Source: a virus (taxonomy: Duplodnaviria > Heunggongvirae > Uroviricota > Caudoviricetes). Taken from it: a DNA stretch of 8,085 nucleotides. The stretch lies in the IMG/VR virus record IMGVR_UViG_2534682338_000005, one strand, 5' to 3'. The number at the start of each line of letters is the position of its first letter. Within the stretch, counting starts at the first letter, position 1. The translations under genes were made by a program, and so were the position numbers. The notes beneath the pieces were generated by a model. The model made no database searches and was not told the DNA's origin. It worked only from the letters and a program-made list of their open reading frames with translations. Below are positions 4,583 to 6,667 of the stretch, piece by piece.

Positions 4583-4751
4583 TATCGCGTCCTCAACAAT
4601 GAATTTTGTGATGCAGTGCCTGGTGCCTCCAGGTGACGTTAACCAGTTAACAATTAACGCCGGATACAGAGAATCCACCCATAACACTGTTTTTGGTTTT
4701 AACTGTTCCGCGTGCGCTTAGCCGCATTCACCGCATCACAAAATTCACTTT

Positions 4752-4794
4752 AAAAACGGCGGCAGAGCAGTCACGGAGTAAAACTGATACCGCC
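4752..4794 (-). terminator. Intrinsic terminator forming the DicF 3' end
   Basis: On the minus strand, GGCGG (4790-4794) pairs with CCGCC (4758-4762) around an internally structured loop, followed directly by a 5-U run (4752-4756). Confidence 0.7.
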
Positions 4795-4809
4795 AAACGT
4801 CACCAGAAA
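4752..4809 (-). ncRNA. dicF: DicF small RNA (Hfq-dependent antisense regulator of ftsZ and other mRNAs)
   Basis: Minus-strand sequence TTTCTGGTGACGTTTGGCGGTATCAGTTTTACTCCGTGACTGCTCTGCCGCCGTTTTT matches my recollection of the ~53-nt DicF RNA and ends in its terminator hairpin plus U-run. Position between ydfC-like and dicB is as in the Qin dicB operon. Ends are approximate (+/- 3 nt). Confidence 0.8.
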
Positions 4810-5084
4810 ATTGATAACAGAGGGCGTTGCAGCGGGGTTGTCACTTAAGCGTATGGTCAACCTGACAACTCGGTGTCCTCAACGGGGAAGGAATAACCCC
4901 GCCATACTTACCGCCGCGCCATTTCGCGGGTTGCCACAACCGGAAGCGCACGGTCGAATTAAATTTAACGACACCGTACAGTGAGACGAACTTCGCCGTG
5001 CGCTTTCGTGTTGTGTGCCTGCTTTTAACCACGTCAGGCGAGGTGGTATCCTTCTTATTCCGAATAACCAAGAAGGAAATCTAT

Positions 5085-5285
5085 ATGACTAAAGAAGAAT
5101 TTGTCTCTTATATTTTTGATAAAACGGTTGAAATGTATGCCGCTACTTACGGGTCCTGTAATCCTCTGAATAAACCAGAGGGGAAAGATGATTTCGACAA
5201 AATTTACCGCTTCTTGGAGGACCGCTATATCAAAAGGTTAGAGGACGCAGGGATCAAATCCCCAGTGAAGTCACCATTGTCCTGA
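5085..5285 (+). CDS. Hypothetical small acidic protein (66 aa), convergent to the leftward operon; candidate only
   Basis: ATG at 5085-5087 preceded by a strong SD AAGGA (5073-5077) with 7-nt spacer; ORF MTKEEFVSYIFDKTVEMYAATYGSC...KSPLS. AT-rich coding sequence next to a GC-rich structured region. 3' end overlaps the ydfB/C-like 3' end by 32 bp on the opposite strand. No homolog recognised and no clear promoter. Confidence 0.3.
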   Translation: MTKEEFVSYIFDKTVEMYAATYGSCNPLNKPEGKDDFDKIYRFLEDRYIKRLEDAGIKSPVKSPLS

Positions 5286-5619
5286 GAACTTGCAGGACGT
5301 CATGATCGTAACTTCCATCCAAACCGCGACGGCAAATTGCTTCTCGTATTACCGGAAGCAGTTCGCTGGAAATCTCGGTGCATATTTCACCTGATAATAC
5401 GCCTGGCTCAAGTGAGAATATTGGTGAACTTACGGTCTTGGTCTCGACAGTTTCAGAGTCAGTGCCAACATTATAAAGCTCAACGAAAGCGGTCTTGATT
5501 TTCCGGGCCAGATCTTTTGCTGGCTCGCTTGCAATATCTTTCCCGATTTCTCGCAGCACAGAATGCAATGTATGAGCTGCTGTTTTCTGTACATCAGACG
5601 GTAAATCTTTAAATTCCAT
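5254..5619 (-). CDS. YdfB/YdfC-like prophage protein (single 121-aa ORF spanning what is split as ydfB + ydfC in K-12 Qin)
   Basis: ORF with ATG at 5617-5619 (MEFKDLPSDVQ...) preceded by GAGG with 6-nt spacer; a further upstream ATG (5629-5631) overlaps the ydfA-like stop (TGATG) but lacks an SD. Stop TGA at 5254-5256. Sits at the ydfB-ydfC position after ydfA-like; total span (~366 bp) matches the ydfB+ydfC span I recall. Confidence 0.7.
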   Translation of the reverse strand: MEFKDLPSDVQKTAAHTLHSVLREIGKDIASEPAKDLARKIKTAFVELYNVGTDSETVETKTVSSPIFSLEPGVLSGEICTEISSELLPVIREAICRRGLDGSYDHDVLQVLRTMVTSLGI

Positions 5620-5630
5620 CGTCAGCCTCA

Positions 5631-5783
5631 TCAGTCAGTGTTTCTGGCTAACCAGCAACGCGCGCCAGATTCGGTTTTAAACGTTTTGCTTTTGGTATAT
5701 GTCATCGCGGTGAACGTACCGTCCTGGTTGGGGAACACGCCACATACCAGAGATTCGCTGTTGCCAAGATCGATAGTATCCAT
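5631..5783 (-). CDS. ydfA: YdfA-like small prophage protein (DUF1391-type)
   Basis: 50-aa ORF MDTIDLGNSESLVCGVFPNQDGTFTAMTYTKSKTFKTESGARCWLARNTD. ATG at 5781-5783 preceded by GAGG with 5-nt spacer. First gene downstream of the operator/promoter region that follows the repressor gene, the position of ydfA in Qin. ORF-track start at 5837 rejected. Confidence 0.8.
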   Translation of the reverse strand: MDTIDLGNSESLVCGVFPNQDGTFTAMTYTKSKTFKTESGARCWLARNTD

Positions 5784-5951: not shown

Positions 5952-6359
5952 TTATTTTATTGATTTATTTTTACGCGCTTTAAGCATTTCTTCGAAGAGT
6001 TTGTTGAAGTTTTCTACTCTTGCGCGCATTTCAGACAGCAAGGCTTCCTGCTCGGAAGATGGAAGAGCATCGAATAATTCGATCAATTCTTTGTGGTTGG
6101 GAGTTAGCTCTGTTTCCACATGAAGTTCTTGTGCAGGCACTGGTGCCTTGTCTTCGTCACCAAACATTAGCCATGTAGGTGAGCACTTCAGAGCATCCGC
6201 TAAAGCAAACAATCGTTTTCCGACTGGCTGGGTTTCGTCTCTTTCCCATTGTGAAATTGTGACGTGAGCAACTCCAGCGAGGCGCGCAGCTTCTCGTTGT
6301 GTTAAGCGTAATTCTTTTCGTCGCGCCAGAACTCGCTGGCCTAGGGTTCTTGTATCCAT
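5952..6359 (-). CDS. dicA: DicA-like HTH (XRE-family) prophage repressor, CI functional analog
   Basis: 135-aa ORF, ATG at 6357-6359, stop TAA at 5952-5954. N-terminal HTH_XRE signature (LRLTQREAARLAGVAHVTISQWERDETQP), and the C-terminal segment CSPTWLMFGDEDK...EMRARVENFNKLFEEMLKARK resembles E. coli DicA as I recall it. Divergent from the Cro-like dicC with operators between them. Confidence 0.88.
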   Translation of the reverse strand: MDTRTLGQRVLARRKELRLTQREAARLAGVAHVTISQWERDETQPVGKRLFALADALKCSPTWLMFGDEDKAPVPAQELHVETELTPNHKELIELFDALPSSEQEALLSEMRARVENFNKLFEEMLKARKNKSIK

Positions 6360-6381: not shown

Positions 6382-6409
6382 TTGACTTAGGTATCCCGCG
6401 CACAATAAT
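6382..6409 (+). promoter_or_regulatory. Candidate sigma-70 promoter for dicC-like/early-right operon (pR analog)
   Basis: -35 TTGACT (6382-6387), 16-nt spacer, -10 AATAAT (6404-6409). The perfect operator begins at the 3' end of the -10, so repressor binding would occlude the start site. Confidence 0.55.
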
Positions 6410-6426
6410 GTTAGAAAAGTCTAACA
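6409..6426. promoter_or_regulatory. Operator, perfect half-sites TGTTAG-AAAAGT-CTAACA (OR-like)
   Basis: Inverted repeat with identical half-sites and spacing to 5898-5915; overlaps the -10/+1 of the rightward promoter, 13 nt upstream of the dicC-like ATG. Confidence 0.65.
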
Positions 6427-6439
6427 AGAGGGGGCTTTG

Positions 6440-6667
6440 ATGCTTAAAGTTGACGCAATTACTTTTTTTGGCAGCAAAACAAAGCTTGCCAATGCCGCAG
6501 GAGTGAGACTGGCAAGTGTTGCTGCTTGGGGGATACTGGTTCCTGAAGGTCGCGCGATGCGTCTACAGGAGGCATCTGGCGGGGAGCTTCAGTATGATCC
6601 CAAAGTTTATGACGAATATCGTAAGACGAAGCGGGCGGGGCGGTTGAACAATGAAAATCACTCCTGA
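6440..6667 (+). CDS. dicC: DicC/YdaS-like Cro-type regulator
   Basis: 75-aa ORF from ATG 6440 (ORF track starts at TTG 6437), SD GAGGGGG 5 nt upstream. Sequence MLKVDAITFFGSKTKLANAAGVRLASVAAW...LQEASGGELQYDPKVYDEYRKTKRAGRL is typical of small DicC/YdaS-type regulators. Divergent from the repressor. Confidence 0.85.
   Translation: MLKVDAITFFGSKTKLANAAGVRLASVAAWGILVPEGRAMRLQEASGGELQYDPKVYDEYRKTKRAGRLNNENHS

Follow-up and report, generated by a model that had tools for sequence, protein, structure and literature searches.

A conserved, apparently undescribed pseudoknotted RNA domain next to DicF in a Qin-type prophage

The dicBF-type operon and the block upstream of DicF

The stretch of viral DNA that we analyzed (8,085 nt, IMG/VR record IMGVR_UViG_2534682338_000005; hereafter the window) is a Qin/mEp460-type lambdoid prophage integrated beside rspB. 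Its open reading frames (ORFs) include those for integrase, excisionase, an exonuclease, ydfD, dicB, regulators, and replication genes. Over the query, the locus is 100% identical to an annotated Qin-like prophage of E. coli CP53, and phage mEp460 is 99.5% identical across the block described here. Identity to the Qin prophage of K-12 is 92.5% over positions 4700–5026, and homology to K-12 ends at about 5026. On the minus strand, a dicA-like repressor gene is followed by a DUF1391/ydfA-like gene, a 125-aa hypothetical gene, the block, DicF, dicB, ydfD, an 823-aa exonuclease gene, xis, and int. The block therefore lies on the minus strand directly upstream of DicF, within the early-left dicBF-type operon. 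An earlier, sequence-only reading had named the gene upstream of the block ydfB/C-like; the genes actually found there are the DUF1391/ydfA-like gene, the 125-aa hypothetical gene, and a convergent 66-aa ORF.

DicF is among the oldest known bacterial small RNAs (sRNAs), and the dicBF operon is still under active study. The Rfam model of DicF (RF00039) matches the minus strand at 4757–4808 with 72.5 bits (E = 6e-15) and covers only this interval, which leaves the block at 4835–5008 as a neighbor outside the family model. A covariance search of Rfam, which had been proposed as a check, matched the block to no family at the gathering score or at E ≤ 10 and found DicF only. The MG1655 RefSeq record carries no annotation in the 340 nt between ydfC and dicF, about a third of which is the conserved pseudoknotted domain described below.

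The GC content is 0.55–0.56 over 4800–5049 compared with 0.34–0.47 in the flanks, as the sequence-only reading had noted, and the four inverted repeats it listed are all present where it placed them. The repeat designated I3 pairs 13 nt with 92% complementarity between arms that lie 42 nt apart; the arms mismatch at one position, which reads G-U in plus-strand RNA and A.C in minus-strand RNA. The others are GTTGTCA/TGACAAC (I9), GTATGG/CCATAC (I16), and CCGCG/CGCGG, the last seen directly in the sequence. They had been described as nested hairpins. Instead, CCATAC lies in the hairpin loop of GTTGTCA/TGACAAC, so that the two helices cross and generate a pseudoknot. Compared with dinucleotide shuffles, a 196-nt stretch gave z = −2.5 on the minus strand and z = −3.5 on the plus strand, with 1 of 200 shuffles folding as well on each strand. 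We counted comparative pairing as a better test than shuffle folding. We consider the block to be, probably, a non-coding minus-strand RNA that constitutes the 5′ untranslated part of the DicF precursor and contains two modules, A and B (Table 1).

Table 1 Features of the block and its surroundings (window coordinates; RNA sequences refer to the minus strand)
Feature	Position	Strand	Basis or remark
Second copy of AAGCGCACG (core of module B 5′ arm)	4711–4719	−	38 nt downstream of DicF
DicF sRNA, 53 nt, with intrinsic terminator	4757–4809	−	Rfam RF00039
Small hairpin GUUAUCA / UGGUGAC	4799–4819	−	MFE folds
Module A, conserved pseudoknotted multi-helix domain, 117 nt	4823–4939	−	Covariance model R1, 142.8 bits
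Helix P1, 3′ strand GCUGCAA	4827–4833	−	Partner UUGUGGC 4933–4939; 94.5% paired
Helix P4, GUUGUCA 4863–4869 with UGACAAC 4837–4843, 19-nt loop	4837–4869	−	I9
Pseudoknot, 3′ strand CCAUAC in P4 loop	4851–4856	−	Pairs with GUAUGG 4902–4907; I16
Helix P2, CGGU 4910–4913 with ACCG 4871–4874	4871–4913	−	Encloses pseudoknot 5′ strand and P3
Helix P3, variable hairpin CGGGG ... CCCCG	4883–4901	−	
Hairpin P0, CCGCG-AAAUGG-CGCGG	4914–4929	−	CCGCG/CGCGG (4914–4918 / 4925–4929); 96.3% paired
Module B, long imperfect hairpin, ~20 paired positions, conserved mismatches	4933–5018	−	MFE fold
13-bp helix within module B	4941–4953 / 4996–5008	−	I3
Inferred RNase III cut, 5′ end of ~190-nt long DicF	4944–4948, ~4946	−	Arithmetic only
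76-aa ORF	4841–5071	−	TTG start codon
66-aa convergent ORF	5085–5285	+	phrog_34441
125-aa hypothetical gene	5254–5631	−	
dicA-like repressor gene	5952–6359	−	

Fold and covariation of module A

A by-eye alignment of the window with K-12, phage P1, cdtI, and pPE4 revealed that 4823–4939 is a separately conserved unit, which we designate module A and which makes up the body of the long form of DicF. The sequence-only reading had proposed a processing or stability domain of the DicF precursor on this strand. That proposal holds for the long helix, which lies at the inferred RNase III site, whereas the three smaller repeats form one separately conserved pseudoknotted domain that is independent of the RNase III hairpin and had been missed.

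To the sequences of the initial alignment were added 130 further copies of module A retrieved from IMG/VR by a two-anchor pattern (62–65 distinct variants) and, by BLAST, copies from P1-like plasmids. In alignment A2, which was fitted to the structural model and represents a narrow family with few independent substitution events, 96.4% of the cells in the proposed helices pair, compared with 30–57% when the partners are slid (71 distinct homologues). Eight pairs change on both sides, a number reached by 1 of 500 shuffles. The comparative alignment that had been suggested earlier thus does contain compensatory base changes, and these support the predicted helices P2, P3, and P4 and the predicted pseudoknot.

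The pseudoknot is 100% paired; the retrieval pattern fixed five of its six pairs, which are therefore uninformative, and also part of P2. Within it, U-A alternates with C-G in two lineages, with U-G as an intermediate, and a C-G pair is replaced by U-A in P1-like plasmids that were retrieved independently of the anchor pattern. A U-A pair of P2 becomes C-G in two P1-like plasmids (L151, L152), which were likewise retrieved without the pattern that fixes these bases. In P4, U-A is replaced by C-G in sequences of the phage P1 type, and a second, different position shows the same replacement in loci L035 and L124. P3 varies most: at least six different hairpin sequences occupy the same position, three pairs change on both sides, and 1-nt insertions or deletions are common.

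The remaining helices differ in their evidence. Helix P1, which would close the domain, shows alternation of U-G with U-A and of G-U with G-C; it is missing in pPE4 and in locus L063 and hence is not universal. Its 5′ strand, UUGUGGC, is also the base of module B, which makes the pairing of helix P1 and of the module B base mutually exclusive. P0 shows no double changes, and its support is conservation only. The strongest and longest local repeat, I2 (4832–4846 / 4888–4902), is not conserved in copies of the phage P1 type and does not covary, since 297 of 500 shuffles score equally well. Outside the helices, the unpaired bases AAG, GGUUGA, and CGC are invariant and common to the phage P1 and lambdoid lineages. 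We found no published description of module A, on which older papers on put-like RNAs, the P1 genome, or DicF may comment, and the Rfam search described above returned no match to it. Module A apparently represents an undescribed conserved structured RNA domain.

Module B, processing of DicF, and the KilS locus of Rac

Module B, a hairpin of about 85 nt, contains the 13-bp helix, and its long stem is kept in six variants (the window and five others, that of the Rac prophage included). In Rac, AAAGCGCAC/GUGCGCUU is replaced by AAGGCGCA/UGCGCCU, a compensatory change from A-U to G-C. A precedent for such a hairpin is the RNase III site in the N leader of lambda, which also lies in a pL transcript but has no sequence relationship to module B.

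The processing of the homologous transcript is known from K-12. According to published work (Faubladier et al. 1990, as cited in later papers; Ragunathan et al. 2023, PMC10448788), RNase III cleaves the polycistronic Qin transcript to yield a DicF of ~190 nt, and cleavage by RNase E yields the 53-nt form. The 190-nt species is gone in an rnc mutant and accumulates once RNase E is inactivated, and the two species are related as precursor and product. A figure of the supplement prints the sequence found in the window. The papers examined label the region as a "long untranslated region" or as the ydfC 3′ UTR and place no conserved pseudoknotted domain between the two cuts. The window shares with K-12 the type of locus, the long hairpin as RNase III substrate, and an AU-rich linker before DicF as RNase E site, although its upstream genes are not ydfB and ydfC.

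Where would RNase III cut in the window? Subtracting 53 from 190 leaves 137 nt, and counting these back from 4809, where DicF begins, puts the cut at about 4946, with an uncertainty of about ±5 nt given that the size comes from a gel. Because this position falls within the 13-bp helix, in the 3′ arm of module B, we assign the cut to module B. By analogy to K-12, module B would be the part of the DicF precursor on which RNase III acts, a role that is already known in substance. The published cut numbering "813/814" does not match a length of 190 nt if counted from the transcription start (PMC10448788).

Downstream of module A, the DicF 5′ seed UGGUGAC is predicted to pair with GUUAUCA in the linker that precedes it, in a small hairpin whose loop contains the RNase E cut (4810|4809). 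The pairing is preserved through a G-U in variant L030. The 190-nt DicF may thus be a masked pro-sRNA in which the seed is sequestered. A further pairing involves the 9-mer AAGCGCACG, which occurs on the minus strand at 4711–4719 and, in the 5′ arm of module B, at 4997–5005; its complement at 4944–4952 is the 3′ arm. These three occurrences in the window compare with 0.09 expected. If transcription reads through, the downstream copy could offer the 3′ arm an alternative partner, and the resulting helix would enclose module A and DicF. No covariation was observed at the site of the downstream copy in Rac.

The Rac prophage offers a natural comparison. KilS is an annotated Hfq-bound sRNA of Rac (b4833) encoded upstream of kilR (Bar et al. 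2021, PMC8175672). In the K-12 chromosome (NC_000913), its locus lies at 6406–6600, minus strand, of segment 1412000–1424000 and consists of module B, AAAU, another seed, and a DicF-like terminator, followed by the downstream flank of Qin. KilS resembles DicF in its position upstream of a kil-type division inhibitor, its RNase III-type hairpin, its terminator tail, and its downstream flank. It differs in the seed and in that AAAU takes the place of module A between the two strands of helix P1; model R1 finds no module A in Rac. As judged from sequence, KilS is a member of the DicF family. Its 5′ end falls in the 3′ arm of the hairpin, and its length of 98 nt is 92 nt shorter than that of long DicF, about the size of module A. 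The position of the 5′ end suggests that it arises from RNase III processing rather than from the independent promoter that has been proposed from transcription start site data.

The model that we favor, with moderate confidence, treats module A as an accessory that serves the sRNA unit in cis. RNA polymerase starting at the dicA-proximal promoter would proceed through module B, module A, and DicF with its terminator. RNase III would then cut the 3′ arm of module B near 4946 to give the ~190-nt DicF, a step published for the K-12 homologue. The cut would free the strand GGUUGUGG, which also forms the base of module B, to close helix P1. Module A, with the fold that covariation supports, would collapse into a compact pseudoknotted domain that forms the 5′ body of the long species. 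Finally, RNase E would cut ~13 nt past module A, in the loop of the putative seed-masking hairpin, to release the 53-nt DicF; the dependence of this step on RNase E is published for K-12.

Distribution and possible roles of module A

Module A was found in 4418 of 5426 complete E. coli genomes, or about four-fifths; the copy number is 2 at the median and 8 at most. All 40 records listed lack any annotation beneath the match. A strict scan of genome contigs with a DicF 25-mer returned six loci, nearly all near-identical, and a search of IMG/VR for divergent members, with a pattern carrying R before CAGGTTGACC, yielded mostly chance matches that were rejected by model R1. The family appears to be limited to lambdoid prophages of the Escherichia type and to P1-like phage-plasmids of Escherichia, Salmonella, and Klebsiella.

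The architecture of the loci varies. In phage P1 (NC_005856; 2440–2605, minus strand), module A is annotated only as a "dicF-like region". It lies ~25 nt downstream of the C1-controlled promoter Pban and precedes the tRNA genes, tciABC, and ban, transcription of which must pass through module A and its terminator. Like the window, this region combines module A (78.6% core identity) with an intrinsic terminator on the transcribed strand; unlike the window, it lies right after Pban and has no RNase III hairpin, DicF seed, or dicB. In cdtI and Stx2c phages, module A occupies a leader of ~280 nt between the first gene and a promoter-like site just downstream of cI, which we read as a putative pL. 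The first gene after the terminator in a cdtI (L012) and an Stx2c phage (L155) encodes a phrog_204 protein and is followed by that of a DUF2303 protein. In pPE4, module A lies between a dicA-like repressor gene and kil. Its frequency, its multiple copies, and its position at the head of the ban operon of phage P1 make module A a concrete object for experiments.

An intrinsic terminator or sRNA unit follows module A in every locus examined. In ten different spacer/terminator classes, the terminator lies 13–31 nt after helix P1 and is preceded by differing single-stranded "seed" segments. Because all ten downstream classes carry a terminator, we conclude that what constantly accompanies module A is a seed with a terminator, a unit resembling an sRNA. 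The modules combine in several ways: Qin has B, A, and the sRNA; Rac KilS and most loci with the KilS seed have B and the sRNA; cdtI/Stx2c, pPE4, and phage P1 have A and the sRNA. A scan for the KilS seed found module B only at most loci, module A at one, and neither at a few, the last in unrelated phage contexts. Since loci with one and the same seed can carry B only, A, or neither, we interpret modules A and B as optional 5′ accessories, independent of each other, in a DicF/KilS family of sRNAs that is diversifying. A second copy of module A was not found by R1 within any of 40 loci with up to ~7 kb of flank.

The 17-nt seed ACAUUGCUGUGUGUAGU with a terminator recurs in unrelated phage contexts (among L159–L274; for example, L220, L227, L240, and L191), and some copies directly follow the stop codon of an ORF without modules A and B. 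Its recurrence suggests a widely shared sRNA seed with a common target.

What could module A contribute as an accessory? It is likely to shield the seed and terminator from the upstream mRNA, to protect the long form, and to present the RNase E site. We prefer this cis role because module A takes the same slot as the known processing hairpin and is dispensable in Rac; the presence of an intrinsic terminator 13–31 nt after helix P1 in all ten classes, the free combination of the modules, and the 5′ end and length of KilS point in the same direction. Module A is not needed for sRNA biogenesis as such, since loci of the Rac type lack it and still produce a stable sRNA. Against the accessory role, a plain hairpin would do the jobs of processing, stability, and insulation, and the invariant unpaired bases suggest a specific partner instead. 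A parallel exists in the 3′ETS sRNAs linked to tRNAs, which are released by RNase E just after a compact structured RNA and end at the operon terminator, although module A has no sequence relationship to them and is not a tRNA. If module A acts in processing only, it refines the model of DicF and KilS biogenesis and explains the existence of the 190-nt form.

The strongest competitor of the accessory model, itself rather unlikely in our estimation, is that module A is a cis-acting processive antiterminator. Like put of HK022, the nascent domain would bind and modify RNA polymerase and, in phages that lack N, permit read-through of the DicF-type terminator into dicB or kil, the exonuclease gene, xis, and int. 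HK022 putL and putR are likewise nascent structured RNAs ahead of terminators in the early operons of an N-less lambdoid phage, and the complex fold with invariant unpaired bases would suit such a function. In every architecture seen, polymerase passes module A shortly before it meets the first intrinsic terminator of an early operon with needed genes downstream, and module A lies, as put does, between the early promoter and the first terminator; the short distance to Pban in phage P1 and the leader position in cdtI are examples. Moreover, the early-left operons of Tritos, cdtI, and Stx2c phages and of the window have no N-like gene, either by annotation or by search. However, module A resembles putL and putR neither in sequence nor by model: only chance 9–12-mers are shared with the HK022 genome, in which R1 finds no match, and with putL and putR themselves nothing beyond a chance 9-mer. 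The put elements consist of two stem-loops without such a pseudoknot and come in twos, with one in the PL operon and the other in the PR operon, whereas module A has four or five helices plus a pseudoknot and is present once per locus; the loci examined contain no further copy in the rightward operon. In addition, Rac and most KilS-seed loci have the terminator and lack module A, and in Qin-type phages module A is ~1 kb from the promoter.

It is tempting to speculate more broadly that module A belongs to a new class of nascent-RNA regulators and acts on the transcription or processing machinery, either in the manner of put or by sensing a host factor or metabolite. Such a regulator would decide between a stop at the sRNA terminator and continuation into the kil/dicB, recombination, and excision genes of N-less phages and of phage P1; we consider this proposal, too, rather unlikely. 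Control of read-through, if true, would represent a second RNA-based route, after HK022 put, to the delayed-early genes of N-less lambdoid phages.

It is less likely still that module A acts in trans, as a piece of ~137 nt between the RNase III and RNase E cuts that serves as a decoy or tRNA-like mimic. The two known cuts would give such a piece defined ends, purifying selection on module A is strong across phage P1 and lambdoid phages, and the four-way junction resembles a cloverleaf where helix P1 forms. Yet module A never occurs apart from a terminator or sRNA unit, ARAGORN calls no tRNA or tmRNA, and Rfam gives no tRNA match. We found no report of a discrete module A species, and the published blots were probed for DicF only. 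A tRNA-like element was rejected on the negative ARAGORN and Rfam results, the four-way topology being the only likeness. The analogy to type III toxin-antitoxin systems, with their order of structured RNA, terminator, and toxic protein, was also rejected: module A is not tandemly repeated but occurs singly, and the downstream gene varies (dicB, kil, phrog_204, tRNAs).

We think it very unlikely that module A is a riboswitch-like sensor in which a ligand switches the terminator or the access of RNase E. As in terminator riboswitches, an aptamer-like fold with a multi-helix junction closed by helix P1, a pseudoknot, and a variable peripheral hairpin is followed by an intrinsic terminator, and in phage P1, cdtI, and pPE4 the domain lies in a 5′ leader. 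Module A differs from riboswitches in having no conserved switching helix, no known class, and no clue to a ligand in its gene context. The best duplexes that module A can form with the terminator 5′ arm have z of −0.9 to +1.3 and lie at inconsistent positions across the ten classes; this shows no conserved, exclusive antiterminator pairing. The spacer differs in length and sequence between classes, and I2, the longest alternative pairing, does not covary (297 of 500 shuffles are as good). No aptamer class of Rfam matched at E ≤ 10, and the distribution of module A is very narrow.

That the block encodes a protein is scarcely credible, despite a match of the 76-aa minus-strand ORF to phrog_8854 (E = 2e-27) and despite the hypothetical proteins that several phage records annotate over the block. 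Among close relatives, module A measures 115, 116, 117, 118, 119, 120, or 121 nt, with 1-nt insertions or deletions in P3. Because its lengths vary by 1–2 nt, we regard module A as non-coding. The reading frame is not conserved among homologues, the ORF would start with TTG, substitutions are compensatory in helices rather than codon-periodic, and K-12 RefSeq has no annotation at the block. The frequent 1-nt changes in length mark the 76-aa ORF, its phrog_8854 match, and the phage annotations as spurious. Thus, several phage records and one PHROG family describe as "hypothetical protein" what is a structured RNA.

The sequence-only reading had also offered a leader on the plus strand for the convergent 66-aa ORF, and a plus-strand leader or promoter region must be judged extremely improbable. 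The block does lie upstream of this ORF, and, taken alone, the plus strand has a slight advantage in folding (z = −3.5). Nonetheless, the block is conserved at loci without the ORF (K-12 Qin, cdtI/Stx2c phages, and phage P1), and homology to K-12 stops short of it. Among the helix cells, 135 are G-U and would turn into A.C mismatches on the plus strand; 96.4% of cells pair on the minus strand compared with 92.2% on the plus strand. No promoter-like site was detected on the plus strand between 4835 and 5085. A retron msr/msd, which had already been thought unlikely, was rejected, as the ORFs of the window include no adjacent reverse-transcriptase gene.

The 66-aa ORF takes the place of ydfC of K-12, the break in homology with K-12 being at about 5026, and overlaps the 3′ end of the 125-aa early-left gene by 32 nt. 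At locus L003, an ORF of similar place and size is named as an ECs_2282-family putative zinc-binding protein.
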